A DNA stretch of 64,000 nt from a virus (Duplodnaviria; Heunggongvirae; Uroviricota; Caudoviricetes). The notes beneath the pieces were generated by a model. It saw only the letters and a list, made by a program, of their open reading frames with translations, was not told where the DNA came from and made no database searches. Both the position numbers and the translations under genes were made by a program. The DNA lies in the IMG/VR virus record IMGVR_UViG_2541047715_000004; one strand, 5' to 3'. Below are positions 5,579 to 52,644 of this stretch, one piece after another (the stretch's first letter is position 1; each line of letters starts with the position of its first letter).

Positions 5579-5625
5579 ATGCAAACTGACTGCGGCACGT
5601 TCCGCAGTCATATTTCATAGTCGTC

Positions 5626-7252: not shown

Positions 7253-7272
7253 GTGGACACCTTTGTCATTCA

Positions 7273-7374
7273 ACCGCTGACAGCATACTTGATTTGCCGC
7301 TGACAGAATACTAAAAACAGTTGGCAGCATACGGTGAACCGCTGACAGACTATCAATTACCGCTGACAGCATAC
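7273..7374. repeat. iteron array upstream of rep (4-5 copies)
   Basis: ACCGCTGACAGCATAC at 7273 and 7359, variants at 7296, 7338, partial at 7321. Confidence 0.8.
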
Positions 7375-7409: not shown

Positions 7410-7495
7410 ACAGCGATCGGGGATCTTATTTGATCTATATAAGGATCTATCTATGGATCTCTTTATTAGGATCTATCCTGTGGATATGTGAATAA
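7410..7495. promoter_or_regulatory. putative plasmid origin core: GATC cluster plus DnaA box
   Basis: Six GATC sites within 7415-7473; TGTGGATAT (reverse complement ATATCCACA, one mismatch to TTATCCACA) at 7480-7488; AT-rich. Confidence 0.55.
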
Positions 7496-35762: not shown

Positions 35763-35788
35763 AGGCGGTGCAATGCACCGCCTTTTAT
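35763..35788. terminator. bidirectional terminator hairpin
   Basis: Hairpin aggcggtgc-aat-gcaccgcct with T-run, between convergent umuD-like and mrp genes. Confidence 0.55.
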
Positions 35789-36888
35789 CACACTGCGCGG
35801 AATGCGATTTCGCCAGGTATTACTTCACCTTGCCAATACATTTGGGCGGCAACGCGATCTGCGAGGTCACGATAAATAGCCGTAAATTCGCTATCTGGAC
35901 GACTAATAACGGTTGGTGTTCCGTTATCCAGATCTTCACGAAGAGAGATATGAAGTGGCATTTGGCCTAACAACTGCGTGTTGTATTTCTCGGCCAGTTT
36001 CTGTGCGCCACCGGTGCCAAAAATTGGCTCGTGATGACCGCAGTTACTGCAAATATGCACACTCATGTTTTCGACGATACCCAGTACCGGCACTTCGACT
36101 TTTTCGAACATCACAATGCCTTTCTTCGCATCGATCAGCGCGATGTCTTGCGGCGTAGTTACCACAACCGCACCAGTTACAGGAATGTTCTGCGCCAGCG
36201 TCAACTGAATATCACCAGTGCCCGGCGGCATATCGAGAACGAGATAGTCCAGATCAGGCCATAGAGTTTCCTGCAACATCTGCATCAGCGCCTTGCTGGC
36301 CATCGGTCCACGCCACACCATTGCATTGTCGTCGGTGACCAGATAACCAATAGAGTTGGTTGCCAGGCCATGAGACATGATAGGTGCCATGTGAGTACCG
36401 TCAGGTGAGGTTGGACGTTGGTTTTCCGCGCCCAGCATGGTTGGAATTGATGGACCATAGATATCGGCATCCAAAATACCAACTTTCGCACCTTCAGCAG
36501 CCAACGCCAGTGCCAGGTTTACCGCCGTGGAGGATTTACCCACGCCGCCCTTGCCTGAGCTGACGGCGATAATGTTCTTAACGCCATTAATGCCTGGTTG
36601 GTTTTTGACGCGCTTAAGCGTGGCAATGTTGTACGACAGCTTCCAGTCAATAGCCTTTGCGCCAGTGATACGGAGCAGATCACCACTACATTGCTCTTTC
36701 AGGTCTTCAAAAGGCTTATTCCACACGAAAGGCATGATTAGTTCGACATGCAGTGTGTCATCCATCAACGCAACATGGTGTAACGCTTTAAGCGTAGTCA
36801 GGTTGTGTTTCAGGGTTGGGTGCTGAAAATTAGCCAGCGTACCGGCTACCATTGCTCTCAGGGCATCCGGCGATTTGGACTCGCTCAT
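35788..36888 (-). CDS. apbC: iron-sulfur cluster carrier ATPase Mrp/ApbC
   Basis: Deviant Walker A SGKGGVGKSS, CxxC motif ICSNCGHH; divergent from metG as in E. coli. Confidence 0.9.
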   Translation of the reverse strand: MSESKSPDALRAMVAGTLANFQHPTLKHNLTTLKALHHVALMDDTLHVELIMPFVWNKPFEDLKEQCSGDLLRITGAKAIDWKLSYNIATLKRVKNQPGINGVKNIIAVSSGKGGVGKSSTAVNLALALAAEGAKVGILDADIYGPSIPTMLGAENQRPTSPDGTHMAPIMSHGLATNSIGYLVTDDNAMVWRGPMASKALMQMLQETLWPDLDYLVLDMPPGTGDIQLTLAQNIPVTGAVVVTTPQDIALIDAKKGIVMFEKVEVPVLGIVENMSVHICSNCGHHEPIFGTGGAQKLAEKYNTQLLGQMPLHISLREDLDNGTPTVISRPDSEFTAIYRDLADRVAAQMYWQGEVIPGEIAFRAV

Positions 36889-37045
36889 CCCGTCTCCTTT
36901 ATTTTAATTTGCGCAATTGTCGCCTTGTAGTGTACTCCAGCTACGACATTTAATCATTTATGAGAAATGCTGTTATCACATGGCAGACATAAGGCCATTT
37001 TGTTACTATCAAGCCCCTTTTCACTACAAAGAAGTAATGCCTACT

Positions 37046-39079
37046 ATGACCCAAGTCGCGAAGAAAATTCTGGTGACGTGCGCGCTGCCGTACGCTAACG
37101 GCTCAATCCACCTCGGCCATATGCTGGAGCACATCCAGGCTGATGTCTGGGTTCGTTACCAGCGAATGCGCGGCCACGAGGTTAATTTCATCTGTGCCGA
37201 CGATGCCCACGGTACGCCGATCATGCTGAAAGCACAGCAGCTTGGTATCACACCGGAGCAGATGATTGGCGAAATGAGTCAGGAACACCAGACTGATTTC
37301 GCAGGCTTTAACATCAGCTATGACAACTATCACTCGACGCACAGCGAAGAGAACCGCCAGCTGTCTGAGCTTATCTATACTCGCCTGAAAGAGAACGGTT
37401 TTATTAAAAACCGCACTATCTCTCAGTTGTACGACCCGGAAAAAGGCATGTTCCTGCCGGATCGTTTTGTGAAAGGCACCTGCCCGAAATGTAAAGCGCC
37501 AGATCAATACGGCGATAACTGTGAAGTCTGCGGCGCAACATATAGCCCGACTGAATTGATCGAGCCGAAATCGGTGGTTTCTGGCGCTACCCCGGTAATG
37601 CGTGATTCCGAACACTTCTTCTTTGATCTGCCTTCTTTCAGCGAAATGTTGCAGGCATGGACCCGCAGCGGCGCGTTGCAGGAGCAGGTGGCGAACAAAA
37701 TGCAGGAATGGTTTGAATCCGGCCTGCAACAGTGGGATATCTCCCGAGATGCGCCTTACTTCGGTTTTGAAATTCCGAACGCGCCGGGCAAATATTTCTA
37801 CGTCTGGCTGGACGCGCCGATTGGCTACATGGGTTCCTTCAAGAATCTGTGCGACAAACGCGGCGACACTACCAGCTTCGACGAATACTGGAAGAAAGAC
37901 TCCACCGCCGAGCTGTACCACTTCATCGGTAAAGATATCGTTTACTTCCACAGCCTGTTCTGGCCTGCCATGCTGGAAGGCAGCAACTTCCGCAAGCCGA
38001 CCAACCTGTTTGTTCACGGCTATGTGACGGTGAACGGCGCGAAGATGTCCAAGTCTCGCGGCACCTTTATTAAAGCCAGCACCTGGCTGAATCATTTTGA
38101 CGCCGACAGCCTGCGTTACTACTACACTGCGAAACTCTCTTCGCGCATTGATGATATCGATCTCAACCTGGAAGATTTTGTTCAGCGCGTGAATGCCGAT
38201 ATCGTGAACAAAGTGGTTAACCTGGCCTCCCGTAATGCAGGTTTTATCAACAAACGTTTTGACGGCGTGCTGGCAAGCGAACTGGCTGACCCGCAACTGT
38301 ACAAAACCTTCACTGATGCCGCTGAAGTGATTGGTGAAGCGTGGGAAAGCCGCGAATTTGGCAAAGCTATCCGTGAAATCATGTCACTGGCTGACCTGGC
38401 TAACCGCTATGTTGATGAACAGGCTCCGTGGGTGGTGGCGAAGCAGGAAGGCCGCGATGCCGACCTGCAGGCGATTTGCTCTATGGGCATTAACCTGTTC
38501 CGCGTGCTGATGACGTACCTGAAACCGGTACTGCCGAAACTGACTGAACGTGCAGAAGCATTCCTGAATACAGAACTGACCTGGGATGGTATCCAGCAAC
38601 CGCTGCTGGGCCATAAAGTGAATCCGTTCAAGGCACTGTATAACCGTATCGATATGAAACAGGTGGAAGCACTGGTGGAAGCATCCAAAGAAGAAGTGAA
38701 AGCCACAGCTGCACAGGTAACTGGCCCACTGGCTGACGACCCGATTCAGGAAACCATCACCTTTGACGACTTCGCCAAAGTTGACCTGCGTGTGGCGCTG
38801 ATTGAAAACGCGGAGTTTGTCGAAGGTTCTGACAAACTGCTGCGTCTGACACTGGATCTCGGTGGTGAAAAGCGTAATGTCTTCTCAGGCATCCGTTCTG
38901 CTTATCCAGACCCACAGGCACTGATTGGTCGTCACACCATTATGGTGGCTAACCTGGCTCCGCGTAAAATGCGCTTCGGTATCTCCGAAGGCATGGTGAT
39001 GGCTGCTGGCCCCGGCGGGAAAGATATCTTCCTGTTAAGCCCGGATGCTGGTGCTAAACCAGGCCACCAGGTTAAGTAA
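37046..39079 (+). CDS. metG: methionyl-tRNA synthetase
   Basis: 677 aa, near-identical in pattern to E. coli MetG (HIGH motif [13 protein letters not shown], zinc knuckles CPKC...CEVC); true start ATG 37046 inside the longer listed ORF. Confidence 0.95.
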
Positions 39080-39240
39080 TTAAACAACCTCTGTTCGCAA
39101 TGCCCGGCAACACGCTGGGCATTTTCATATAGACACAACCCCTTCTGACTTTAACAAACCCTAAAACAATTTGTTTTCTACCTTTTGTTGATTGAGATAA
39201 TAAGCCACATAAGAAAACAAATTGTTTCGGAGTTGTTGAA

Positions 39241-39540
39241 ATGTTGAACATTACCCAAGCCTACCAGGTGGCATTGATCAGTTCATCTCATACATCAGAG
39301 GAAGATGCTCGCCGATTCATGATCGCAAGCAATGAGCTGGATTGGGTTTCACAAATTGATGGCGGTTGTATTGTCCACGCCGGGTTACAGGATGATGTCT
39401 GGAAAGATGACTTGCGTCGATATGGTATATCCGAAGGCGCGATTGCTAACATTCAGAAAGTACTTGATGTAGGCTTTGACTCTGTACATTTTGATTGTGG
39501 TGCACCGGTCGTTGAAGGGCTAGAGTGCTGGCAATGGTAA
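39241..39540 (+). CDS. hypothetical protein
   Basis: 99-aa ORF preceded by two GAAAACAA(n)TTGTTT motifs. Confidence 0.45.
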   Translation: MLNITQAYQVALISSSHTSEEDARRFMIASNELDWVSQIDGGCIVHAGLQDDVWKDDLRRYGISEGAIANIQKVLDVGFDSVHFDCGAPVVEGLECWQW

Positions 39541-39576
39541 TCCGGCAATCGCTTCATACTAGATAACGGAGAATTT

Positions 39577-39762
39577 ATGCTTAAAGAAGACTCATATCTA
39601 CTAAAGGCGCTTGAAATGCGTGGCGTTGAACCTACAGTGAAAAACGCTCACGATATCTACCTTCAGTTTTCACCGGAGCTGAAACGGCTCATAAATCAAT
39701 ACGGGGTTAATGACTCAAGTGTTAAAGCAATGATAGATGATGAATTAGACCATCTCATCTAA
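39577..39762 (+). CDS. hypothetical protein
   Basis: 61-aa ORF with RBS. Confidence 0.35.
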   Translation: MLKEDSYLLKALEMRGVEPTVKNAHDIYLQFSPELKRLINQYGVNDSSVKAMIDDELDHLI

Positions 39763-39914
39763 TCGTTTCCTATGATAATGGTTTTCACTTTGAGATTGTT
39801 ATTTTTCATAGCTAAAGCTGATGTTTGTGGAAGGTGGATTGATAAACGGATGCGTATTTAGGTTATACAAGTGAGAAAATTGATAATATATAAACGCGAT
39901 TTTTATGTGATGGA

Positions 39915-40484
39915 ATGGATGTGATGGAAACCCAGAACCAACAAACAAAACCTCTGAATAACATTTATGCGTGGATTCTAGCGTTCATGCCTTTCTTCTT
40001 TGGAGTATCGCCGGAAGAGTATACCAATTACGCTATTATAATTGGGGGTGTAACTACCATCGGTTTGTTAGTAGCTGACAGAATGGCTCTATCGGAGTCT
40101 GGCTGTGAACCACCTTCAATTCTATGGGGGGTATTCCTCCTGCCTGTCTATCTCTGGAAGCGCGCGACTATTACAAAAGGCAGCAGAGTGCCATTTATCA
40201 TAATCGTTGCGTCGCTGGCTTGGATTATCTTCATCGGCATCCCACACAAGGACGAGGTTGCTCTTGAAGAAGCAGCCTGCCCTCTCGTGACAACTATTCT
40301 GAAAGAGAATAACGGTTCGACTGCACCAAAATGTATGAAGGTGACAATAGAGGACAAGGTGACGGATAAGTTCTATAGAGCAACGGCTACACTAGACAAT
40401 GGTAATGACATTAACATTACTCTGGAACTTACCGGCGACAGGAACTTCTACGTCCGTGTTCCAAATGTTTATCTGAACAACTAA
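39915..40484 (+). CDS. hypothetical membrane protein
   Basis: Several hydrophobic segments; exact start uncertain. Confidence 0.4.
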   Translation: MDVMETQNQQTKPLNNIYAWILAFMPFFFGVSPEEYTNYAIIIGGVTTIGLLVADRMALSESGCEPPSILWGVFLLPVYLWKRATITKGSRVPFIIIVASLAWIIFIGIPHKDEVALEEAACPLVTTILKENNGSTAPKCMKVTIEDKVTDKFYRATATLDNGNDINITLELTGDRNFYVRVPNVYLNN

Positions 40485-40699
40485 CGGTTGTAACTTATTG
40501 ATAATGGCGGTCACAATTTGATTCTTTTCTATAAGAATCCGTTGATCGCCACTACTCCCCTACCATGCCCGCAATCACATCCTTAAATATCAATAAGTTA
40601 TAGTTGTTTATACAATCAAGAAAACAACTGAATAACAGATCAACGAAACATCAACGCTTTCACCCGATTTGGTCTAAAAAATTGACGTTTTCACACATC

Positions 40700-41340
40700 A
40701 CTGCTTATACCCGTAATTCTACACAGCAGACAGCGCCACAGCGTCCAATTTTCACCACAGACGACCCAACACACTACCAACAAAAACACATGCTCAAAAT
40801 CGTTCCCGTTGCGTTACATAACCATATAAACAACTTATTTTCAGGCATAACAAAACAACTAAATAACACATATGCCATTCCCAAAACAACCAACCTCGTT
40901 ATGGCAGGCTACCGAAAAGACCCACCTCTTCTTCCCAGGCTACCGGACAACCAACCTAACTTTCACAGGCAATCCGAAAACATTCATACGCGCGATACCC
41001 ACGACACGCCATTACCCAAACAGCGAAGAAACACCAGAATCACTGAAACCCCAACGAAGCCTGTAACCGCAAGGTTTCTCTCAATCCCAAAAGACACGAA
41101 GCATAACAATCACGGGAAACGCCATTACCCAATACACGAATAACTACAAAAGCCTTTCACACACTCCAGACAAACAACTCAAACACAATAACGAAAGGAA
41201 TCGCCCACCTGCCATTACTCCATACACGGAGAAGAACAATCACCAAAACGACGAGAACACCCCATAGAAGAACCACCGCAAAACTAACGAAACCACATAC
41301 ACCGACAGAGAAAACAACACACCCAATTCACCAACAGAAA
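40700..41340 (+). other. C+A-rich, G- and T-depleted tract (approximate bounds)
   Basis: Long runs such as caccacagacgacccaacacactaccaacaaaaacaca; ORF 40604-41143 translates to low-complexity T/P/N/K/H/Q-rich sequence. Confidence 0.6.
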
Positions 41341-41467
41341 TAGTCGCCGTATAGAACGTTCTGGAAGGAGTGAGCATTAACGCCTATAGAGAGGTTGAGA
41401 CAGATAAAACACGAAGAAAACACAACATGTATAGCGAAGAAGCCAGGTATGTATAAGTGGGGAGGGA

Positions 41468-41490
41468 AGGAGGGGTGTCGCCTCCTTTTT
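41468..41490 (+). terminator. putative terminator after CA-rich tract
   Basis: Hairpin ggagg-ggtgtcg-cctcc followed by TTTTT. Confidence 0.4.
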
Positions 41491-41553
41491 CGTATTTATT
41501 CAACTCCTGATTTTATCCCCCGTAAAACCCCTACGGTCAGCCTTCGGTCCATA

Positions 41554-41700
41554 CAGGGAAAAGGTTGCATCCCGCTACAGAAACGGCTGGGTTGCCTTCG
41601 GGGAACGGCTGGAGGTTTTCAGGGAAACGGTCGAGTTGCCTGTGTGGATTTCGGGAGAAGGCTCGATGCCGGTTCAGGAACGGTGGAGTACCGGTATAGC
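41554..41700. repeat. array of GGGAAACGG-like repeats at about 22-25 bp spacing
   Basis: cagggaaaagg, cagaaacggctgg, ggggaacggctgg, gggaaacggtcg, gggagaaggctcg, ggaacggtgg. Confidence 0.55.
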
Positions 41701-42047
41701 GAGAGGGAGAGTTGCGGCTATCCACCTGTAATCTGCGGGAAGAAGAGTGGCGCTCACGTGCAGGCGGACTAACTTACCGTTGGACTCCCTCTGAATGCCC
41801 AGTTACAGCGTAATTGTGCCAGACAGCCAACGGGTCACAATCGATTTCAGTAGGTTTTCGGGGAGATGATTATTCTGCCCACCAGCCACCTTCGGCCACT
41901 AAATCAGAATAATGTAAAAAGTGTTCTCGGTACTGAACCTGAAAACTCACTGCCAAAACCACATTCACCGGAATAAAATCCTTTTTCGCCTGTGCGTTAT
42001 TGCGATAATAACACCATCAAGAAAACATGTTGTTTAAGGATTGCTTT

Positions 42048-42377
42048 ATGTTTGCAAATATCGACATCAACCAAATCAAGAAATTGACTCAAAAAGAGTT
42101 TGACCAGTTCTATGAGCTGGAAGGTTGGTCTTCCACTCTGATCAATTCGCGGTGGGTGCTTGAGCTGATGACTCGTGATGACGCACCTGCTTTGATGATT
42201 TGCGACATGGGTGAAGATGCTGACTTTATGGATATGAGCGAATTTTGTGTGGACACATACAACCGCAGCCAGAAGTACTACTTCACATGCGATAGCGAGA
42301 ATGACGTGATTTCTAAGGTCTATCTTCACCTTGTCCAGCATTGGGACGTTCAGGAGTTTCTTGAAGTATTCGAGTAA
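42048..42377 (+). CDS. hypothetical protein
   Basis: Start taken at second ATG (MFANIDINQ); first ATG lies inside the upstream motif. Confidence 0.45.
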   Translation: MFANIDINQIKKLTQKEFDQFYELEGWSSTLINSRWVLELMTRDDAPALMICDMGEDADFMDMSEFCVDTYNRSQKYYFTCDSENDVISKVYLHLVQHWDVQEFLEVFE

Positions 42378-42530
42378 ACCTAACCAAAGCCAGCATTGCT
42401 GGCTTAATTTCTCTATAGCCGCAGGGAAGAACCTGCATATCGCTCATGCACCTGATCATTATGCTTTGTAGCCGTTTTCTTACTGGTATTATTTACGCCA
42501 TTGAGAAAACAAGTTGTTTACGGAGTTGTG

Positions 42531-42842
42531 ATGAAAAAATCATTGGTTCTTGGTCTGGACAAAGACCAGAAGAGAAAAGAGAAGCCTGCGCTGGTTGCTC
42601 AATTAACTTTGCTGGACATCGTTGCCAATGGAACCTCTATTCGTCTGTTCCGTGAAACAGCGGTGTCTTTCGATAAAAACACCTTTACTCGTTATGTAAT
42701 GAATGTTCGTCGCCAGCGTGGAAAAGGCTGGATGGCATTTCAAAGAATGTGGCCGGAACATCAGCTCGAACTGGCTTTGATGGAAGTTAACCGCGTGGCC
42801 CAGCAAGAAATTCAGAGAGCATCAGTGATGGCAATAGCCTGA
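42531..42842 (+). CDS. hypothetical protein
   Basis: Start taken at MKKSLVLG with GGAG RBS. Confidence 0.45.
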   Translation: MKKSLVLGLDKDQKRKEKPALVAQLTLLDIVANGTSIRLFRETAVSFDKNTFTRYVMNVRRQRGKGWMAFQRMWPEHQLELALMEVNRVAQQEIQRASVMAIA

Positions 42843-42877
42843 TAATGTGCAAGTGGTAATTAGTCGACAGTACGACA

Positions 42878-42907
42878 GCCCCGCCATCCTTACGGGGCTT
42901 TTTTGTA
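42878..42907 (+). terminator. rho-independent terminator
   Basis: Hairpin agccccg-ccatccttac-ggggct followed by TTTTTT. Confidence 0.65.
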
Positions 42908-42968
42908 TTGTAAGTACATACTTACGATCATAGAATATAAAAATAACCAATACACTACGGAGAGTGAA

Positions 42969-43364
42969 ATGACCGTTAAACGCGAAAAACTGACTGTTGA
43001 TGTTTACTATGCCTCTGAAACCGCCGAAGGTAAGAATGTGGCAAAAATCACCGTTGTTACGTACAACACCGAAACTGGTGCCGAAGTACAGGCCAGTACG
43101 ATCGTGCGTAAAGGTGATGCCTCCGGCGGCGAGTACGCGACTCAATACCAGTCCATTCTCGATGCAACTGACCCGCTGCTGCTGAAAATCGAGAACTACT
43201 TCCGCCAGGTTGATGAAGAGGTGTTTGAAACCATGATGAATATGGTTAACACCGTATTCGCCTCCAACCTGAATACCAACACTACCTGGATTGGTCAGTA
43301 CGGCCTGCGCATTACCTCTGGCATTCCTGCCGACACCTTAATCCCTGAAAGCGTATTCGCTTAA
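42969..43364 (+). CDS. hypothetical protein
   Basis: Start taken at MTVKREKLT with GGAGAG RBS. Confidence 0.45.
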   Translation: MTVKREKLTVDVYYASETAEGKNVAKITVVTYNTETGAEVQASTIVRKGDASGGEYATQYQSILDATDPLLLKIENYFRQVDEEVFETMMNMVNTVFASNLNTNTTWIGQYGLRITSGIPADTLIPESVFA

Positions 43365-43373
43365 TCCTCTTTA

Positions 43374-43400
43374 AATGGCGCGTAAACCGCGCCATTTTAT
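43374..43400 (+). terminator. rho-independent terminator
   Basis: Hairpin aatggcgcg-taaa-ccgcgccatt followed by T-rich run. Confidence 0.6.
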
Positions 43401-43481
43401 TAAGCCCGATAACAATTTGTTTTCTGCCTTATCTGATTTGTGAAAATGATTTCACTGAAGCAACTTAATAAGGAAACCATC

Positions 43482-43856
43482 ATGGGACTTGATATCTATA
43501 TCGAGACACAGCCTAAAAACGATCTGAATAACGAGGCATCCAGAAAGCAGGTTGCTTACTTCCGTAAGTTCAATGCGCTCGTTGGGTGGATGGAGCGCAA
43601 CGTAGGTGAAGTCGAAAATTGTGAGCTTTTAGAATTAACGATGAATGACATTTGTTTTCTGAAGGCTCATTTGATGCACATAAACGAAAGCAATTGCGAA
43701 GAGTACTTGCCTACCCGGGAAGGTTTTTTCTTCGGCAGTCAGGAGTACGATGAAGGTTACTGGCATGACGTGGATAAGCTGAAAAAACTTGTGGAAGACC
43801 TGATCAGGAACCACGACTTTCACAATAACAGACTGACCTTCTGCGCCTGGTGGTAA
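43482..43856 (+). CDS. hypothetical protein
   Basis: Start taken at MGLDIYIET with AAGGAAA RBS. Confidence 0.45.
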   Translation: MGLDIYIETQPKNDLNNEASRKQVAYFRKFNALVGWMERNVGEVENCELLELTMNDICFLKAHLMHINESNCEEYLPTREGFFFGSQEYDEGYWHDVDKLKKLVEDLIRNHDFHNNRLTFCAWW

Positions 43857-43858
43857 AT

Positions 43859-44002
43859 ATGGGCGATTTCAAGAAACGCCTGAAGGAAAGAGCCGAGATG
43901 GTCAGAAAGCAAAACGCCTCTTCTGTCATCAGATACGCAAGGCAGTTTAGTCGCAACAACAAATCAGTTGAGGAAAAGATCCTTAGCGTAATCGTGCGAT
44001 AA
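43859..44002 (+). CDS. small basic ORF (below 60-aa cutoff, uncertain)
   Basis: 47 codons MGDFKKRLKERAEMVRKQ..., followed by hairpin aaggccatcagcattggtggcctt. Confidence 0.2.
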   Translation: MGDFKKRLKERAEMVRKQNASSVIRYARQFSRNNKSVEEKILSVIVR

Positions 44003-44206
44003 TTATTAAGGCCATCAGCATTGGTGGCCTTAAATGACCATCTTGTTTCCCGCAGGCTAAAAACACCAACCTCTTACCTCCAGGCAACCGACAAACCCAC
44101 CTGTTCCCGTCCGGCTACCGCAACTTTCCACTTTGACGCCTTATTCGTACAACGATAATTAACGCCAACAAGAAAACAATTTGTTATTTACGATAAGGAA
44201 TTAATC

Positions 44207-44689
44207 ATGAATTTTATCGCTACTGTAAACGCACCCGCACATGGCAATATCGCTGTAACGTTCTCTGACATTGAAAAACGAGTACTTGGTGCATGGCGCG
44301 ACAATGAGACGGTAGAACTGTCAGCACAAGAAAAATGCATTATTGCACGCGACATCATTGGCAATCGTCGTTACTCGCGGGTATTTGAGAAAGCGTATGT
44401 GGTAAATTCTGGATTCGGAACGTTCGTCTTTCCGGTGCGCTCCGGGCGATTCTGCCAGTCCAAGCTGATTGAGTTCGCTACGCAGATTTCTGTCTGGATT
44501 AAAACTCAATCGTCGTTCAAATTTTCCGACGATGAAGCAGTATCGCAGGGGATGCGGATCGCCAACAATGCGATTAAATGCAAAAACATTACGTATACCG
44601 CTGGCGTTGATACATGGAAACTGTTTTGCGCTAACTTTATGCTGAATGTATACGCAAGCAACCGCATCCACATCCTTGATGGCGTGTAA
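44207..44689 (+). CDS. hypothetical protein
   Basis: 160-aa ORF with GAAAACAATTTGTT motif upstream. Confidence 0.5.
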   Translation: MNFIATVNAPAHGNIAVTFSDIEKRVLGAWRDNETVELSAQEKCIIARDIIGNRRYSRVFEKAYVVNSGFGTFVFPVRSGRFCQSKLIEFATQISVWIKTQSSFKFSDDEAVSQGMRIANNAIKCKNITYTAGVDTWKLFCANFMLNVYASNRIHILDGV

Positions 44690-44691
44690 CT

Positions 44692-44722
44692 GAGAAGAGG
44701 GCCAGAAACGGCCCTTTCTCTA
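44692..44722 (+). terminator. rho-independent terminator
   Basis: Hairpin gagaagagggcc-agaaac-ggccctttctc. Confidence 0.5.
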
Positions 44723-44741
44723 TAGCCACCAGCTGCCGCAG

Positions 44742-44830
44742 GGAAATTTTCAGAAACGGCGAGGAACGTATTCATGAGCCGACGGGGAACGGCCAGGATT
44801 TTTTCGGGAAACGGCTGCATTCGCCTTTAT
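44742..44830. repeat. second GGGAAACGG-like repeat cluster
   Basis: cagaaacggcgagg, ggggaacggccagg, gggaaacggctgc at about 22-bp spacing. Confidence 0.5.
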
Positions 44831-44939
44831 GTAGAAAAAACATCGGGAAGCTGGTGGAATCCAACCAGCGGTTGTCGGACAGGTGAGCGGGGAAAATTAT
44901 GATGACTTTCGTCGCCTGAGACATCCAGATTTCTTTCGT

Positions 44940-45065
44940 AGCGTAATCACATATGTGATTAAGTGGTGTGATTATGTGAAAAATCACGCGCACATAATAC
45001 GAGAGCGGATACGGAACAAAACAAAATGCCGATCCGCGCCGACAATTAAACGCGGATCACATAGC
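44940..45065. promoter_or_regulatory. cluster of palindromes (putative operator region)
   Basis: Perfect 16-bp palindrome AATCACATATGTGATT; ATTATGTG...CACATAAT; GATCCGCG...CGCGGATC. Confidence 0.35.
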
Positions 45066-45281
45066 AAGAATAAAAGCCAATGATTAACCATACACCATAA
45101 CGCAATATAACGCGATTTAAGCGCGTTAATGCGCTAAGTAATGGGTATGTACTGGTAAGGATATAAAAGCGCGTCTATGGCGTTATTTTGGCGCTTATTT
45201 TTATGTTGTTGGTGTGAGTCAAAGACAATAAAAAAAGCGCCATCATTGGCGCGTTATGGTGGAAGTATTGGAAACGAAAAA

Positions 45282-45300
45282 AGCGCCCATAGTGGGCGCT
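45282..45300 (-). terminator. terminator hairpin for minus-strand operon (repeated hairpin family)
   Basis: agcgccca-tag-tgggcgct with T-run on minus strand; the same 20-mer aaagcgcccatagtgggcgc recurs at 45549-45568. Confidence 0.5.
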
Positions 45301-45305
45301 CGATT

Positions 45306-45536
45306 TTATTTATGTAAACTGATTTCAAATCCCATTTCTACAAACGCTTTTAACATTAAAAATATATCAGCGTCATTCATGTCTGCTTTTTTTCGCTCCT
45401 GGTCGCTCAATAAGTCAATTTTGCGCGTCGTTTCATCTATAAGCTCGACTGCGCGCCCAGCGTAACCAGCGATCCCAGCGATGCGATTAACAAAATATTC
45501 ATTACGTACGTTAACGCCAGCGATAAGAATAAACAT
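45306..45536 (-). CDS. small hypothetical protein
   Basis: Start taken at MFILIAGV with AAGGAG RBS; second gene of a two-gene minus-strand operon. Confidence 0.4.
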   Translation of the reverse strand: MFILIAGVNVRNEYFVNRIAGIAGYAGRAVELIDETTRKIDLLSDQERKKADMNDADIFLMLKAFVEMGFEISLHK

Positions 45537-45583
45537 GATTAAGCTCCTTAAAAGCGCCCATAGTGGGCGCAAGATTCCATTAA

Positions 45584-46234
45584 TTACGCTTTGAAAGCAT
45601 CAGCCAGATAGTTATAGAAATCATTTTTAATGAAGCGATATTGCTGCGTACCAGCTTTTGCGCTTCCCATTCCTTTGACTTTCTCAACAAGTCCAAGACG
45701 TTCGCAAAGATTGATCAACTGGTTGGCTTGAGTATAGCCAGCGTCCAATTTAATTTCGCACGCTTTTTTAGCTTCATTCATTAAATCGAAAACAGCGCCA
45801 TTGGTGAACGTGTCGATCTCGTCGTTAATCATATCGATTAAAGCGAATACACGAGATCCTGACATATCAGCGATGGAATAAACGCATTTACCAGCTTTAA
45901 TTGATTTAACCAGATAGACCAGTTTTTCCAGTGAATAACTATTAGTCATTGCATCACGGAAAAATACTTCTGGCGCTTGTTTACTTGCTTTGATCGCATA
46001 GTAGAAAACAGAGCATAATTTTTCGTCTTCTACTGCGTTCACAACGTTGTTGATGAAGTAAGCAAGTTTAGTGGTCGCAGCTTGCATGTTTGCTTTGTCT
46101 GCTTTTGTGTGCGTACCATTTTTATAATGTTCGTTATATGTTTGAGTTGCCAGATCTGCTTTTTCGCGCAGCTCGTCGGATACAATGGCAGCAGCTTCAA
46201 TGATGGATTTTTTAGAAATGATAATGTTAGCCAT
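45584..46234 (-). CDS. hypothetical protein
   Basis: 216-aa ORF in AT-rich block with AT-rich upstream region 46235-46480. Confidence 0.5.
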   Translation of the reverse strand: MANIIISKKSIIEAAAIVSDELREKADLATQTYNEHYKNGTHTKADKANMQAATTKLAYFINNVVNAVEDEKLCSVFYYAIKASKQAPEVFFRDAMTNSYSLEKLVYLVKSIKAGKCVYSIADMSGSRVFALIDMINDEIDTFTNGAVFDLMNEAKKACEIKLDAGYTQANQLINLCERLGLVEKVKGMGSAKAGTQQYRFIKNDFYNYLADAFKA

Positions 46235-46531
46235 GATTTTATTCCTTAGTATAAATATTAAAATTTAACTCAAGAAAGAAAGTGTTTTGCACTCGTTCCT
46301 GATGCGTTCAATTATCGATACGCGAAAAAAGATTGCAAGTGTTTTTTTAAGTTTTTTTGCAGGGATGAAAGTCTTAGAAATAAAAGCGAGATCGTCGAAG
46401 GTGTTCCCTAAATAAATAATAAATTCCGGCTTTTGACCTTATATATTTATACGGGGGAGAATTGAATGAGTGTTAAACGAATGGCATGTAAAATAATAAC
46501 CGGACTTAGCCGGTTATTACCCTTATAGAAA

Positions 46532-47053
46532 TTAAAACGGAAGGATTCGTTCAACCCAATCGAAGAAAATAAGTATTTTTCTACCGTCTTCCAACTTAAG
46601 TGTGACTAGACAGGCGTCAACGCCATCTGACGTTCCCTCAATTTCGCGACCGTCTGCCATGTAGACCCTTATAGATTTGCCGTTTTGGTAAGCCTGACGA
46701 CATATCTTAAAAAAGTCACGACGTGATGGCTGATTAACCATCTGTTCATTGTTTAGCGTTAGTCGACCTGTGAATGAAGTGTCAACCTCTTCTATGCCCG
46801 ACTCAATTGTGCTAATGCGCTCAAGAGGGAGCCTTATACGATTTGTGTTGCTAAGCGGATCTGGTGTGAGGTTCAGCTTATTTCTTGCGCTCAATAGCCC
46901 GTAGACATACATGCAAAACACTTGGCCGTCTTCGAGAGTGACTCTTACAGGAAATTTTGCACTCCGCCAGAAGAGCAAGGTGCGCTCAGCATGTTCGTAG
47001 TCTCGCGGCCAGACTTCAGCCGGTATGCCGTAGGTGATGTCCAATGTTCTCAT
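46532..47053 (-). CDS. hypothetical protein
   Basis: 173-aa ORF overlapping upstream gene by ATGA; terminator hairpin aataaccggacttagccggttatt downstream. Confidence 0.5.
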   Translation of the reverse strand: MRTLDITYGIPAEVWPRDYEHAERTLLFWRSAKFPVRVTLEDGQVFCMYVYGLLSARNKLNLTPDPLSNTNRIRLPLERISTIESGIEEVDTSFTGRLTLNNEQMVNQPSRRDFFKICRQAYQNGKSIRVYMADGREIEGTSDGVDACLVTLKLEDGRKILIFFDWVERILPF

Positions 47054-47643
47054 TCTGATACTCTTAGAGGTGTTTTCAGCAACCCAAATTTAAATTCTTT
47101 GTTACCAACGACAAAGAAGGGAACCTCAACATAGATTTTTTTATCGACGGATTTAGAGTTAGCTGTTTTATGTATGTCACGAACGATACGTTTTGAGATA
47201 TTTTCATCGATAAACAATACCTTTCCACTTGTATTCCCTTCAGCCTTGGCGTAAGTAACGATAGGCTCTTCATTGCCAACCCTAATGTTTACTTGGCAAC
47301 CTGTTGTAGCCATTTCATCACAGTAAAGTGTGCCGTCTTGAACTTCCAAAACAATTCCAGATGGCTTCATGGCTTCGTCAGAGCTTACATTAACGTTTTC
47401 TGGTACAGCGGTCCCGTTAATTTGCAACCGTAATCTTTCTTTTCCTGCATTAAGTATTGTTTCTTCTGCGTTATCTGAGAATCTGAACCAGACTGGTTGA
47501 ATCAGACCTCGTGATTCGTATTTTAGTACGTCTTCAGAAGTATACATGCTGTACGTTTTTTGCATGTCGGAGACGATATCTGACAACGCATTTGCGGAAA
47601 ATGACGAGAGGTATATACAAGCAAGAAGTAACGAACGTTTCAT
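47050..47643 (-). CDS. hypothetical secreted protein
   Basis: N-terminal signal peptide MKRSLLLACIYLSSFSANA. Confidence 0.5.
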   Translation of the reverse strand: MKRSLLLACIYLSSFSANALSDIVSDMQKTYSMYTSEDVLKYESRGLIQPVWFRFSDNAEETILNAGKERLRLQINGTAVPENVNVSSDEAMKPSGIVLEVQDGTLYCDEMATTGCQVNIRVGNEEPIVTYAKAEGNTSGKVLFIDENISKRIVRDIHKTANSKSVDKKIYVEVPFFVVGNKEFKFGLLKTPLRVSE

Positions 47644-47823
47644 TTTTATACAGCGATTATTGCAAAGTAGAATTATAAATATCCAATAGTCTCAAACGAT
47701 AAGTTTTCAACTGTAAATAGCAGACGTGTTTCTCTAAAAGCTGTGCGGCAAAGGCGTTGTTGCCGCACTCTGTCTATTAGCTCTTCAAGTCTGGCAATTC
47801 TGAAATTGACTAAGAATCCAATA

Positions 47824-48102
47824 TTACGGCAGTTTGCTTAGAATTTGCTCTAAATCTTCCTTTGTCATATTAGAGTTCTCATAGATGCGCATGATTTTCT
47901 CACGAGCCTTAGCAGAGACTCCAACGGCAGATGAAACTTTGTCAAATTCAGCCATTGTCATCGCTTCCAGAATGGTATTGATAACTTCAGCCTTAGACAT
48001 TTTGATGTTTTTTTCTTTTAGTTTCATTTGAAACTTTCCAAGTTTGTCATTGGCCTTATCGGACAATGCCACCTGACAATAAGTTGTTTTCTTTTCGCTC
48101 AT
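47824..48102 (-). CDS. small hypothetical protein
   Basis: 92 aa, immediately downstream of helicase gene; terminator hairpin gtgcggcaa...ttgccgcac follows on minus strand. Confidence 0.45.
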   Translation of the reverse strand: MSEKKTTYCQVALSDKANDKLGKFQMKLKEKNIKMSKAEVINTILEAMTMAEFDKVSSAVGVSAKAREKIMRIYENSNMTKEDLEQILSKLP

Positions 48103-48104
48103 AA

Positions 48105-49664
48105 CTAATCTCGTTTCAGAACTCCAAAATCGAATGCGCCATCAATAGGCAATACACCTTCTGCAAAGCCAGGTGTGGTGTCGATGATGTGTTTTCGCTC
48201 ATAAGAGTGAGACAACAGGTATTTGTTGCTAATGTCAATGAAATCAGTGATAAAACACACGTTTGCCTGATTTTTTTTGGCTCGTAAGCCACGACCGACA
48301 CGCTGTCTCATTTCAACTTCTGCTTTCCCACCACCAGCAAGAATGACCGCACCAACGCTTGGCACATCAACACCGACATCCAGAATAGTCGAGCCTATTA
48401 AAACATCTATTTCTCCAGACGCTAAACTGTTCAGCTTTGCTTGCCTTGTCGCCTGGTTAGATTCCCCATAGATGAAGTCAACTCTAAGGCCGGACTCTTT
48501 CATCATTTCCATCAGGATTTGCCCGTGGCGTTTAAGACGAACCAGAGTCATACAATTGAGAGAATGTTGCTTATAGAGCAATGCTTCGCGAACAATGGCC
48601 TCGTTACGTCCCAAATTATACACGATCCCCAACTGATAAGCCTTTTGGTAGGCGGTGCTCATACCAACTCTAAAATTGAGGTGTTTGTTGGCAAGTTCGG
48701 CCTTGATTCTGGCCTCGTCTGGCTTGTAGGCAACTTTATGATAAAGGAAGTACGGCTTTGCCAGAATGCCTCGATCAATCAGGTACTTTTCTGTGACTTT
48801 AATTTCAATTCGCCCGGCCACCGCCATCAGGCGCATGTTGGCTTCCGTCGAATCCTTCATGAACGGCGTGGCTGTAAGCGCCAGACGATAGTCTGCGTTC
48901 ACACATAATCTGGCGATGTCATAGAAATTTGAGCCTGAAGACTCATGCGCCTCTTCCAGAATAAGAAGAGAGACACTTGAAAGGAAGCGTTTCACCAACT
49001 CCCGACGTTTGAGGTGGTAGCTCTTTTTATCTGGTGTTGCATCGCGTGGTGGTTCTTCGAGGAAACTTGCAAGAGTTTGAACTGTAGCGACGTTGATATG
49101 TCGTGATACCTGGAACTCACCCGAGCCAATGACTCCAACCTTTTGGTCTTTTAACCACGGTTCGCCATTTTCGGCGCGGTAGTCGATGGATCTCTGGAAG
49201 TTTTCGGCCATTTGAAACATCAGAACAGAGCGGGTTGTTAAAAATAATGTCATTCGACCGATACGTGCAGCTGCTTTGCAGGCAACATTAGATTTCCCGC
49301 CACCAGTAGCGATCTGCGCAATCATCATTCCCTCTCGAACCAGTGTTTCCACAGTCTGATCCTGATACGCATAATCAGGATTGTATGGGAATGGGTTAAC
49401 CGCCGGATTTGGTTTTCCAAGCGCCGGGGCTTTGTCTTTGCGGATATGAACACATTTGATGCCCGCCTTGTTCAAGTTCGCCGCTACAGGCTTGGCAAAG
49501 CCAGCAGGGAACGAGTTTTTACTCCAGTTGAACATCGTGCTTGTGCCCTTCCAGTCGCCAGTCTCGACTTCGTAGCTCAACATTTGCTGCACCAGTTGCT
49601 TTACCTTGTCATCTGCGCCAGAAATAAGCGCATTTACTGCGTTAGATACAATCCGAACAGTCAT
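48105..49664 (-). CDS. superfamily 2 DEAD/DEAH-type helicase
   Basis: Motif I ATGGGKS, motif II LILEEAH, motif III LTATP, motif VI QRVGRGLR. Confidence 0.7.
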   Translation of the reverse strand: MTVRIVSNAVNALISGADDKVKQLVQQMLSYEVETGDWKGTSTMFNWSKNSFPAGFAKPVAANLNKAGIKCVHIRKDKAPALGKPNPAVNPFPYNPDYAYQDQTVETLVREGMMIAQIATGGGKSNVACKAAARIGRMTLFLTTRSVLMFQMAENFQRSIDYRAENGEPWLKDQKVGVIGSGEFQVSRHINVATVQTLASFLEEPPRDATPDKKSYHLKRRELVKRFLSSVSLLILEEAHESSGSNFYDIARLCVNADYRLALTATPFMKDSTEANMRLMAVAGRIEIKVTEKYLIDRGILAKPYFLYHKVAYKPDEARIKAELANKHLNFRVGMSTAYQKAYQLGIVYNLGRNEAIVREALLYKQHSLNCMTLVRLKRHGQILMEMMKESGLRVDFIYGESNQATRQAKLNSLASGEIDVLIGSTILDVGVDVPSVGAVILAGGGKAEVEMRQRVGRGLRAKKNQANVCFITDFIDISNKYLLSHSYERKHIIDTTPGFAEGVLPIDGAFDFGVLKRD

Positions 49665-49746
49665 AAACCTCTTTCCTTAGTGCCTTTTGTATGTTATTTG
49701 GCTATTATAATAAGTAAGTGATTACTTAGTGGATTGTAGCAATAAA

Positions 49747-50427
49747 ATGGATGTAAAAATCACGATTTTGCAGGTTGATGTTGCCAACCTTCGCCCGAAT
49801 ACCTGGAACACCAATTCGGTTGGTGCGCAGAATTTTGAAAAACTGAAAGGTTCTATCGAAAAATTGGGCTTTTTTAAGCCAATTTTGGCTCGTGAACTTG
49901 AAGATGGATTTTTTGAAATCCTAGGCGGCGAACATCGCTGGCGTGCTGCTATTGAGCAAGGAATTTCAACGGTTCCGGTGCTTTCTGTGGGCAAAATTAG
50001 CGATGTCGTAGCTAAACAGATGTCACTGGTGGACAACGAGCGATACGGTGAAGACGACCAAATCGCATTGCAACGCTTCATTGAAGAAATTCAGTCAGAA
50101 CTTGACTATCAACTGTCTGAAATCGCCCCGTATGACGACGAAATCTCGATGGTTTTAGCAAAAGAGGCGGCAATCGACCTTGAAGCACTGGAGGCGTTGT
50201 CTCGTGGTAGTGATGAGCCTGTCGATACCGACAAACGAGAGAAAACCGAACGTGTGGGGGCGGAACATCAGACCATGCGCTTCAAAGTAACTTTCGATGC
50301 GTCAGATCGTGTTGCAGAAACCATAAAAAACATCATCAAAGAGCAGGCTATTAACACCGGTAATGAAATGGAGAACGCTGGTGAGGCTCTGGTGTGGCTG
50401 GTCGACTACTACAAGGAGCGTATGTAA
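49747..50427 (+). CDS. ParB/Srx-fold nuclease-domain protein
   Basis: ILGGEHRWRAA matches ParB box II type motif; start taken at MDVKITIL. Confidence 0.55.
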   Translation: MDVKITILQVDVANLRPNTWNTNSVGAQNFEKLKGSIEKLGFFKPILARELEDGFFEILGGEHRWRAAIEQGISTVPVLSVGKISDVVAKQMSLVDNERYGEDDQIALQRFIEEIQSELDYQLSEIAPYDDEISMVLAKEAAIDLEALEALSRGSDEPVDTDKREKTERVGAEHQTMRFKVTFDASDRVAETIKNIIKEQAINTGNEMENAGEALVWLVDYYKERM

Positions 50428-51095
50428 TGACCAAAAAGTTTGAAATCGTATATCGCGACCCGGCAGATCTTATTCCCTATGAGATGAATGCCAAAAAGCA
50501 TGATGAACAGCAGATCCGAGATCTGGCCGCAGCCATTAAAAAGCGCGGATTTGACCAGCCAATTACGGTCGATAAGAACGACGTAATTATTACTGGCCAC
50601 GGCCGCCGTGAGGCTGCAATTTTTGCTGGACTTGAGCGCGTGCCGGTTATTGTTCGCGATGATCTGAGTGATGACGAGGTACGTGCAAAGCGCCTTGAAG
50701 ATAACCGACTTGCCAGCATTGATTACGATGCAATTAAGCTACAGAAAGAGCTTGAGTCGCTTGTTCTGGACGATATCGAGGTTTTCGGCTTCGAAGAGCG
50801 TGAGTTGAATGTTCTCGTTGGCAGTATGACAGAAGAAATGGACACCGACTCGCTAGTTATCGATCTTGGCGAAGAAACTAAACGACAGAAGGATGAACAC
50901 ACCGAGATCAGTCGTGAAGTTGCAGCGGAAGAAGTACGTGTTGTCGACGTATTGGGCTTTAAAACGCTCCCTGCTGGCTCTGCCATTGTTGTTGGTGATT
51001 TGCTTGCCCATATGGAAGAAATGACGGGAGAAAGCGGGGTAGACGCATTTGTGGCATATGCGGAGAAGATCTCTTCCGGGGAGATGGCTGCATGA
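50427..51095 (+). CDS. second ParB/Srx-fold domain protein
   Basis: IITGHGRREAA motif; start taken at MTKKFEIVY, overlapping upstream stop. Confidence 0.55.
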   Translation: MTKKFEIVYRDPADLIPYEMNAKKHDEQQIRDLAAAIKKRGFDQPITVDKNDVIITGHGRREAAIFAGLERVPVIVRDDLSDDEVRAKRLEDNRLASIDYDAIKLQKELESLVLDDIEVFGFEERELNVLVGSMTEEMDTDSLVIDLGEETKRQKDEHTEISREVAAEEVRVVDVLGFKTLPAGSAIVVGDLLAHMEEMTGESGVDAFVAYAEKISSGEMAA

Positions 51096-51757
51096 GCAAA
51101 TACATCATCAACGTATCGTTTCAGACACGCGTAAATAAAACCACGCGCACGTTGGAAATCGCTGAGTCGTTCGGGCTTGGCCTGGACGAAAAAGAGTGGA
51201 CGCTTTACGACAATCTGGAGCTGGAAGTGAAGCAGGGCGATGTGGTGTACATCACCGGCCAATCCGGTTCCGGCAAATCCGTTGTGCTGCGCGAGTTGCA
51301 ACGACAGATGAAGGATGAAGGGCTGTCTGTAGCCTCCATCGATGATTTTACCTTCGATAATGAGGTTAACGTCATCGATCAGTTGGGCAAAACGACCAGT
51401 GATGCGCTTGGGTTGTTATCTATGGCTGGTCTGAACGATGCATATCTGTTTGTTCGCAAGCCTTCTGAAATGTCAGACGGCCAGAAATATCGTCTCAAGA
51501 TTGCCAAACTGATTGAGTCAGGCGCTAAAGTATGGGCTGCTGACGAGTTCGGCGCTGTTCTCGACCGTGTAACCGCTCAGGTTGTGGCGTCTAACCTCCA
51601 GCGTGCCGCTCGAAAGGTTGGTGCGACGGTAATGGTGGCGACGACTCACGAAGACCTGAAGAACGCGCTGCGCCCTGATATGCAGATCACCAAGCACTAC
51701 AAAGAACGCGTGAAGGTGGAATATCACAATGGTAGTCATGATGAGGTCCATTCATGA
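51092..51757 (+). CDS. small ABC-type P-loop ATPase
   Basis: Walker A GQSGSGKS, signature-like SDGQKYRL, Walker B VWAADEF, H-loop-like ATTHED. Confidence 0.55.
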   Translation: MSKYIINVSFQTRVNKTTRTLEIAESFGLGLDEKEWTLYDNLELEVKQGDVVYITGQSGSGKSVVLRELQRQMKDEGLSVASIDDFTFDNEVNVIDQLGKTTSDALGLLSMAGLNDAYLFVRKPSEMSDGQKYRLKIAKLIESGAKVWAADEFGAVLDRVTAQVVASNLQRAARKVGATVMVATTHEDLKNALRPDMQITKHYKERVKVEYHNGSHDEVHS

Positions 51758-52644
51758 CGGACATCATCATTAAACGCTACCGCCCTGAAGAGTTTCCGCG
51801 TCATCTGGACTTTCTGGAGCGAATGACTGTTACAAAGGGAACTGTAGAGGACTGGCACGCTCTTAAATCGCTTCACTACAAAACAGACGGCAAACCTTTC
51901 GCGCCAACATACTATCGCTGCGAACTGGATGACCGTCTGGTGGGCGTCGTGGTTATGGCTTACCCGAAACTTCTGCTGGCACCTCGCCATCGCATGTTTC
52001 CTAAGTTGAAACCAACTACCAATACCACCGTGGCTAACCAGTACTGGGGTCGGTACGTGAATAACAACTTTGCGGTGATCAGCCGCTCAGTTGTGGATAC
52101 TCAGTACCGTGGCGTAGGCGTCTCTTATCGAATGATTAACCTGGTTAGCAGGATGCATGACCGGCCAATCATTGAGATCCAGTCATCGATGAGCAAATAC
52201 AATCCCTTCGCCATGAAAGCAGGGTTTAAGTTCATCCGCCCTGAGCGACCGAAGAGCTATGAAAGTGCACTGCGTGTATTCCAGCGCCATTTCCGTTCCG
52301 ACCCGGGTGATAACGAGGCGATCGTCAAAGAGTTGTTCGCAATGAGCGAGTCTCGTCGTCGCCGTGCACTGCGTGATCTGGTGGCGGACTACCACAAGAA
52401 CAGTTCCCTGGCAAAAGCTGGGCGGAATCGTGGCACGACGATTCAGGACATTGCCGACAGTCTGGTGGACGAGGCCAGCATTGTGAAGCTGCTCAAGGAC
52501 ATTCACAACCTGAGCTTTACGTCTCCGTTGTATGGTGTGTACCGAAACCCTGACTTTGGCCGTCGACTGCCTGACACGCTGCCACTGCTGGCATTCGACA
52601 AACAACCTTTGGATAAACCGTTAGAAATTGCTTTACCGGCATAA
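51754..52644 (+). CDS. hypothetical protein, possibly GNAT-fold
   Basis: YRGVGVSYRM resembles acetyl-CoA binding motif R/QxxGxG/A; weak. Confidence 0.3.
   Translation: MTDIIIKRYRPEEFPRHLDFLERMTVTKGTVEDWHALKSLHYKTDGKPFAPTYYRCELDDRLVGVVVMAYPKLLLAPRHRMFPKLKPTTNTTVANQYWGRYVNNNFAVISRSVVDTQYRGVGVSYRMINLVSRMHDRPIIEIQSSMSKYNPFAMKAGFKFIRPERPKSYESALRVFQRHFRSDPGDNEAIVKELFAMSESRRRRALRDLVADYHKNSSLAKAGRNRGTTIQDIADSLVDEASIVKLLKDIHNLSFTSPLYGVYRNPDFGRRLPDTLPLLAFDKQPLDKPLEIALPA

Follow-up and report, generated by a model that had tools for sequence, protein, structure and literature searches.

The stretch of 64,000 nucleotides analysed here (IMG/VR record IMGVR_UViG_2541047715_000004; hereafter, the window) is, as judged by sequence comparison, an SSU5-like phage-plasmid of E. 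coli. The SSU5-like assignment is taken from the annotation of matching plasmid records and of phage SSU5. Two arrays of short direct repeats flank a cassette of small genes in this element, and both lie within large, conserved non-coding regions. A 4-kb region of this DNA shares 97.7% identity with the E. coli phage-plasmid Cyrano and 99.4% with plasmid NZ_CP062914, and the same region is also matched by several hundred plasmids of Escherichia, Klebsiella, Enterobacter, Salmonella and Citrobacter. Read from left to right, a long rightward block of replication and nucleotide-metabolism genes, with methionyl-tRNA synthetase last, is followed by a 1.5-kb non-coding region and then by the small-gene cassette. 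To the right of the cassette are a leftward operon encoding a helicase, a homologue of FljA and a protein of 216 amino acids (aa), and then the late operon, which begins with two ParB_N proteins followed by terminase. SSU5-like phage-plasmids are frequent in clinical Enterobacteriaceae, pHCM2 (S. Typhi) and pMT1 (Y. pestis) among them, and phage-side control in these elements (lytic origin, packaging signals and early-gene switches) is essentially unmapped. In this part of the element no other conserved non-coding signal is as clear as the arrays, which provide precise targets for binding and deletion work.

Both arrays consist of a short, purine-rich box, GGGAAACGG, with the non-palindromic consensus G-R-R-A-A-M-G-G; CTGG often comes next. 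The boxes all repeat in the same direction, on the + strand and outside coding sequence, and each array is found immediately 3' of a terminator-like hairpin. The GC content over the arrays is 0.48-0.58. Array 1 (41554-41690, + strand) has six boxes, whose cores are GGGAAAAGG (41556-41564), cAGAAACGG (41578-41586), GGGGAACGG (41600-41608), GGGAAACGG (41622-41630), GGGAGAAGG (41653-41661) and cAGGAACGG (41675-41683). The core ends, at 41564, 41586, 41608, 41630, 41661 and 41683, are thus separated by 22, 22, 22, 31 and 22 bp. An alignment of 15 representative relatives revealed a conserved leader upstream (41447-41553, + strand) that comprises GTATAAGTGGG, a hairpin at 41464-41490, a T-run and then CCCCGTAA...CTTCGGTC. 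A conserved motif, CCGGTATAGCGAGAGGGAGAG (41691-41711, + strand), ends the array, and a related TAYAG / GAGCGGGAG motif closes array 2 in relatives.

Array 2 (44738-44854, + strand) has four to five boxes: GCAGGGAAA (44738-44746), CAGAAACGG (44751-44759), GGGGAACGG (44784-44792), GGGAAACGG (44806-44814) and a weak fifth box, GGGAAGCTGG (44845-44854). In unit order, a bracketed GAGGAACGT stands between the second and third of these and a conserved CGCCTTTATGTAGAAAA between the fourth and the fifth; steps of 11 and 33 bp occur here in addition to 22 bp. A solitary degenerate unit, CTCTATAGCC-GCAGGGAAGAACCTGCATATCGCT (42411-42444, + strand), is located 3' of the terminator of the first small gene. 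The succession of CTCTATAGCC and then GCAGGGAA is found after two terminators, at 42411-42428 and 44718-44746. The terminator-like hairpin of the last small gene (44699-44717, + strand) has the form GGGCC-AGAAAC-GGCCC and carries the box sequence in its loop, which reads AGAAAC here and GGAAAC in other lineages.

These features agree in large part with an earlier note on this DNA. Reading the sequence confirms the repeats that it had reported at the two sites (six boxes in array 1 and four to five in array 2), the paired motifs that it had noticed near 42412 and 44720 are those located above, and the gene layout bears out its five small genes between the arrays. It had given a periodicity of 22-24 bp. 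Regular spacing holds; the period is 22 bp with exceptions of 11, 31 and 33 bp, so the stated range does not. Clustering stands out in simulations, whereas a count of the exact motif over the whole window does not, as no exact 8-mer or 9-mer is over-represented across it. The pattern G[AG]AA[AC]GG has 19 + strand matches in the window, ten of which are inside the two arrays, with up to five per 140 bp. When the window was simulated 200 times with a first-order Markov model, clusters reached at most one match in 97 runs, two in 101 and three in 2. The clustering of the boxes is thus extreme, beyond every simulation.

The spacings of 11, 22 and 31-33 bp give a phase coherence of 0.96-0.98 at a period of 10.8 bp (0.96 for array 1). 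The direct repeats are therefore in helical phase, and the period fits the 17-22 bp range of iterons. Because the spacings are whole turns, the boxes would lie on one face of the DNA. Tandem Repeats Finder did not report the arrays, as likeness between units is confined to cores of 8-9 nucleotides.

Both arrays are present throughout the SSU5 family (about 70-78% identity), in elements of E. coli, Salmonella (SSU5 itself), Klebsiella and Citrobacter. In two alignments, of 46 and 49 distinct relatives, column entropy is lower in the cores than in the spacers (0.22 versus 0.64 bits, P = 5e-7; 0.06 versus 0.42 bits, P = 4e-5). Representative relatives differ by deletions of 22, 44 or 53 bp, which correspond to whole units, and the register is kept. 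The layout in SSU5 (22, 22, 21-22, 31-32 and 22 bp) is like that of array 1 in the window despite different spacers. On these alignments, conserved cores with drifting spacers are the classical footprint of repeated binding sites under selection. The general idea of the earlier note, that regular spacing points to cooperative protein binding, gains support from the conserved cores, variable spacers, unit-wise insertions and deletions and whole-turn phasing, all of which would suit such binding.

Two lineages depart from this arrangement. In pMT1 of Y. pestis, array 2 is kept and array 1 is gone, together with about 25 kb of surrounding sequence, and the plasmid is stable. Since pMT1 is maintained as a plasmid without array 1, that array would seem dispensable for plasmid life. 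A Serratia-type lineage (L238/L242) has only one good box left in each array. Scanning IMG/VR for the pattern yielded nothing beyond SSU5-like contigs and evident chance matches, and a scan of 185,579 species genomes gave chance hits only, among the matches listed. We found no description of the box sequences in the literature, nor of SSU5 origins, termini or repeats. Thus, the arrays are real, statistically robust and family-wide, and as far as the searchable literature goes they are undescribed.

The cassette between the arrays (42048-44689, + strand) includes five small genes, or six if a 50-aa open reading frame (ORF) is counted. Each gene has its own promoter-like repeat and its own terminator, and gene content varies by lineage. 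Pfam and PHROGs assigned no function to the five proteins. A shared promoter-like module (…CGATAATTAACGCC…AAGAAAACAAnTTGTTT) was identified at 41980-42034, 42464-42518, 44131-44185, 43408-43421 and, on the - strand, 46290-46330; it precedes several of the small genes and, in part, the gene for the 216-aa protein.

Chi sites (GCTGGTGG) are ten-fold in excess in the window (13 versus 1.3 expected), at about the density of the E. coli chromosome, and three of the 13 are within 250 bp of the arrays. One is on the - strand at 41879-41886, about 190 bp to the right of array 1. The others are at the left edge of array 2 (44726-44733, - strand; kept in Klebsiella and Citrobacter) and at its right edge (44850-44857, + strand, inverted relative to 44726). 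Together, the two sites around array 2 make up an inverted repeat, which is also kept in these two genera.

Directly upstream of array 1 is an 840-bp non-coding tract (40600-41440) with strong strand bias (A 40%, C 29%, G 14%, T 17%). Its A+C content is the peak of the entire window. SSU5 has the tract too, and a 90-bp look-alike occurs at 44055-44130. We found no enrichment of Hfq-type (ARN)n motifs in the tract. Further left are a 61-aa ORF (39577-39762, + strand) with faint, sub-threshold likeness to T7 gp5.9, a RecBCD inhibitor (E = 0.005), which may be relevant given the Chi-rich genome, a full-length methionyl-tRNA synthetase (36917-39079, + strand) and an Mrp/ApbC-type P-loop ATPase (35788-36888, - strand), the expression of which has been reported in LF82 lysogens (PMC9928086). 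Near the left end (502-2841, + strand) is a RecA-fold protein split by an intein with a LAGLIDADG endonuclease domain; its position points to a probable role as the replicative helicase. Beyond array 2 on the right, a convergent intergenic region of 600 bp includes, at 45030-45301, TGTGATTAWGTG repeats, at least ten short repeats of AACGCG / AAGCGC type that run in either direction and, on both strands, several terminator-like hairpins. Such a region might serve as an origin or an operator cluster, or encode a small RNA.

Two genes of the leftward operon encode candidate partners for the arrays. The 216-aa protein (45584-46234, - strand) is modelled as long N-terminal helices or a coiled coil followed by a C-terminal winged helix, and is a candidate DNA binder. 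Its gene is 0.8 kb from array 2, beside a UvsW-like helicase gene, and is transcribed towards array 2 from 1.4 kb away. The helicase excepted, the 216-aa protein is the most conserved neighbour of the arrays, and it is confined to SSU5-like elements. TubR is among the structural neighbours of the model, and a Foldseek search of the model against viral structures gave no significant match. In the Serratia-type lineage L238 the gene is inverted. The second candidate, the FljA homologue (46532-47053, - strand; Pfam Flag1_repress, E = 1.4e-68), is modelled as two tandem Sm/Hfq-like domains and is a candidate RNA binder. Neither of these two genes, nor a role at the RNA level, figured in the earlier note.

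Our tentative preference is to regard the arrays as cooperative binding sites on double-stranded DNA that serve the phage side of the element rather than plasmid maintenance. The two arrays would be paralogous cis-acting duplex sites, each with four to six boxes facing the same side of the helix. A single sequence-specific phage-plasmid protein, for which the 216-aa coiled-coil and winged-helix protein is the best candidate, would bind the boxes cooperatively as monomers or dimers and might bridge the two arrays across the 3.2-kb cassette. On the phage side, the arrays could act as a lytic-origin or enhancer pair similar to ori/crr of P4, in control of the early cassette, or in marking genome ends. 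A part in plasmid replication or partition is unlikely, because pMT1 is stable without array 1 and because the partition genes of the lineages differ and are located elsewhere. The DNA reading is supported by whole-turn phasing that extends to the irregular gaps and by the adjacent winged-helix gene. Arrays of this kind are generally duplex sites. Also in its favour, an AT-richer stretch to the right of array 2 looks origin-like, with short AACGCG-type repeats of a second family running both ways. RNA folding of both strands of array 1 and of the + strand of array 2 showed no significant stability (z = +1.07, -0.90 and -0.96), RNAalifold found no convincing or covarying consensus structure in seven variants of array 2, and an Rfam scan of 39-47 kb at E <= 10 returned noise only.

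Several observations weigh against duplex binding on the phage side. No initiator gene, DnaA box or clear unwinding element was found next to the arrays. Tandem duplication could account for the 22- and 11-bp spacings, which leaves the 31-32-bp gaps as the only independent evidence of phasing. The 216-aa protein is kept at 63% identity in L238/L242 despite the single good box in each array there. A box in the promoter of the 216-aa gene, considered as an autoregulatory site, is present in the window and is not conserved. The boxes are all co-directional with local transcription and 3' of terminators, for which a DNA-level model gives no explanation. That the boxes are bound as DNA, by which protein and in what role is something we infer, whereas the anatomy, conservation, phasing and distribution of the arrays are observed.

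The alternatives that place the arrays on the plasmid side, or give them no function, fit less well. It is very improbable that they are decaying, functionless remnants of an old tandem duplication. The units are degenerate, escape Tandem Repeats Finder and have mostly been lost in one lineage, as decay would predict, but the contrast in conservation between cores and spacers is strong, and Salmonella, Klebsiella and Yersinia elements have the same architecture as those of E. coli at an overall identity of about 70%. The earlier note had proposed RepA as the binder and a second origin as the function, and two arrays with spacing of about 22 bp around genes do recall the oriR-repA-incA arrangement of P1. 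We give almost no credence to the arrays being additional RepA iterons, a second RepA-dependent origin or a copy-control locus like incA of P1. RepA (6158-7372; Rep3_N) is flanked on both sides by about 15 copies of a different iteron, the 15-mer ACCGCTGACAGCATA (5620-6157 and 7267-7373), and no such sequence occurs in the arrays, which are of GGGAAACGG type; this difference in iteron sequence rules out RepA iterons. The repA origin has DnaA boxes (7479-7495), which the surroundings of the arrays lack: allowing one mismatch, 38911-52091 has a single DnaA box, within a cassette gene (43769-43777, - strand), and none in or beside the arrays. The repA region with its iterons and DnaA boxes is the plasmid origin, and a second plasmid origin at the arrays is made unlikely by these results and by the stability of pMT1. 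The centromere that the earlier note had suggested for its ParB-like proteins has more to recommend it. Type II and III centromeres typically consist of direct-repeat arrays, TubR is a structural neighbour of the 216-aa protein, and the ParB_N genes are conserved family-wide. Even so, it seems quite unlikely that the two ParB_N proteins (49729-51095), or another partition protein, use the arrays as a centromere-like site. The ParB_N genes head the late operon by terminase, 4.9 kb from the arrays, and the boxes are direct repeats rather than palindromic sites like parS. Plasmid partition genes differ between lineages and are found elsewhere, as with the ParA-like gene of SSU5 and the P1/P7-type par of pMT1. 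In addition, pMT1 lacks array 1 and has array 2, and no actin-, tubulin- or ParA-type partner gene adjoins the arrays. A role in packaging, for which the earlier note had named a pac site, is improbable but less so. The arrays would then delimit a direct terminal repeat or be a pac/cos-like site recognised by terminase, and the 3.2-kb cassette would be duplicated at the virion ends. Two arrays in the same direction around small genes with their own promoters and terminators resemble the terminal repeats of T5 and SPO1, which contain early genes. If DNA ends were placed at the outer edges of the arrays, RecBCD entering there would meet the Chi sites at 41879 (-) and 44850 (+) in the orientation that stops it. 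T5-like phages have large terminases distantly related to the one here (about 25% identity), and GGAAACG in the box is the core of the R sites in lambda cosB. The likeness to lambda is a 7-mer only, however, and the terminase genes, near which no box was found, are about 8.3 kb away from array 2 and 11.4 kb away from array 1. No deposited record of an SSU5-like phage starts at the arrays or has the region twice. The large terminase (53746-55002, + strand; T4-type N domain), which follows a small terminase candidate without a Nu1 signature (53114-53746), is equally close to several unrelated small siphophages. Outside the family its closest relative is in a Ralstonia phage (39%), and relatives at about 25% include T5-like phages and several siphophages of 42-45 kb; packaging mode is not inferable from these relatives.

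A different possibility, which we consider rather unlikely and nevertheless place second, is that the arrays act as RNA (or single-stranded DNA), as multi-site operators or decoys for the FljA homologue. Read-through transcripts would carry the GRAAAC-GG boxes, and the FljA homologue would bind them and thereby regulate the early cassette at the level of stability, termination or translation; or the boxes would titrate the protein instead. The gene for the FljA homologue is 1.7 kb from array 2 and is present in every lineage with full arrays. L238/L242, the only lineage without a fljA-like gene at the loci read, has one good box per site and keeps the 216-aa gene; this correlation represents a single evolutionary event. 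Hosts such as Klebsiella and Y. pestis are non-motile, and their elements retain both the gene and the arrays, which implies a target internal to the element. The modelled tandem Sm fold would agree with the published role of FljA at fliC mRNA, the translation of which it blocks according to a citing passage in PMC2652032. Every box, including the solitary one at 42422, is just 3' of a weak terminator and runs with local transcription, one terminator loop displays the box sequence as AGAAAC or GGAAAC, and the array region is predicted to be unstructured. The arrays nevertheless follow terminators and are not in a 5' leader beside a ribosome-binding site, as the fliC operator is, and whole-turn phasing has no rationale at the RNA level. 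The fliC leader of E. coli carries TGGAAAC, and a primer sequence in PMC5628309 gives GAGAAAC for that of Salmonella. Array 2 of the E. coli lineage has TGAGCCGACGGG, of 12 nucleotides, in common with the E. coli fliC leader (P = 0.0025), and this is the best match of the 5' part of the leader in the whole 64 kb. The match was significant in one of 12 comparisons, is marginal after correction for 12 tests, and has no counterpart between the Salmonella arrays and the Salmonella leader. More broadly, 44752-44795 and the E. coli leader (L114, positions 225-262) have ACGGCGA…TGAGCCGACGGG…GAAC in common, and the ancestral form in other lineages is GGGGAACCGAAGGG. Among E. coli-lineage elements with identical arrays, identity between FljA alleles ranges from 66 to 100%, which also speaks against the RNA reading, and the ORF over array 1 is outside the set of genes expressed in LF82 lysogens (PMC9928086). 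On balance, we rank duplex binding ahead of FljA and RNA.

The RNA reading can be extended to propose that the arrays are the native multi-copy RNA targets of the tandem Sm/Hfq-like FljA of phage-plasmids, a switch of ring protein and repeat RNA over the early cassette, and that Salmonella FljA with its operator in the fliC leader is a domesticated copy. This proposal is speculative and, in our view, doubtful. If the binder is the FljA homologue, it would explain what "flagellin repressors" do in the far more numerous phage-plasmid copies, even without host flagella. Two further candidates were rejected. A CsrA-sponge RNA was dropped because GGA is not kept in conserved units (AGAAACGG, TGAACGG). 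A phage-type or sigma-70 promoter formed by the TATAG motif with upstream boxes was also set aside: the window has no other box plus TAYAG site, and the -10-like hexamer after array 2 is not conserved (TATGTA, CAGGTA, ATGGGA). Over 1-50 kb and 86-103 kb of SSU5, the annotation includes no phage RNA polymerase.

Several known systems resemble the arrays. Like the iteron arrays of P1 oriR/incA, F ori2, lambda ori and P4 ori/crr, they consist of non-palindromic direct repeats about two helical turns apart, with conserved cores and variable spacers. P4 (ori/crr) and P1 (oriR/incA) also have two separated arrays on one replicon. Unlike these origins, the arrays have no adjoining initiator and no DnaA boxes near them, the RepA of the element uses other iterons, and pMT1 is maintained without array 1. 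The phased clusters of 11-12-bp direct repeats of R1 parC/ParR and of tubC/TubR (pBtoxis, phage c-st) are similar, as is the presence nearby of a winged-helix protein with TubR as a structural neighbour; in those systems, however, the array is immediately upstream of the operon for the binder and NTPase, whereas no NTPase gene adjoins the arrays here. Among terminase sites, the R sites of lambda cosB are short repeated boxes with CGTTTCC, the complement of GGAAACG. SRL and SRR of T7, which flank its terminal repeat, are two short-repeat arrays around a block, as the arrays are around the early-gene cassette. The distance of about 8.3 to 11.4 kb from the terminase genes and a small terminase candidate without the Nu1 signature set the present arrays apart from such sites. 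The arrangement of the small genes recalls the mobile promoter and stem-loop cassettes of T4-type phages.

Of the RNA systems, the CsrB/RsmZ sponge RNAs also have many purine-rich repeats (CAGGGAAA-like) about 20 nucleotides apart in a weakly structured stretch. They differ in that several conserved units here have no GGA, that there is no Rfam match and that the boxes are not presented in hairpin loops (fold z between -1 and +1). The FljA operator in the fliC leader is similar in the FljA homologue beside array 2, in leaders with GGAAAC or AGAAAC and in the 12-nucleotide identity (E. coli), and is different as a single site, whereas the arrays are multi-copy and away from a 5' leader or start codon. 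Overall, the architecture is a variant of the familiar phased direct-repeat binding array. It is distinguished by having no initiator or partition operon adjoining, by its two copies around a variable early-gene cassette, and by two unusual candidate partners.

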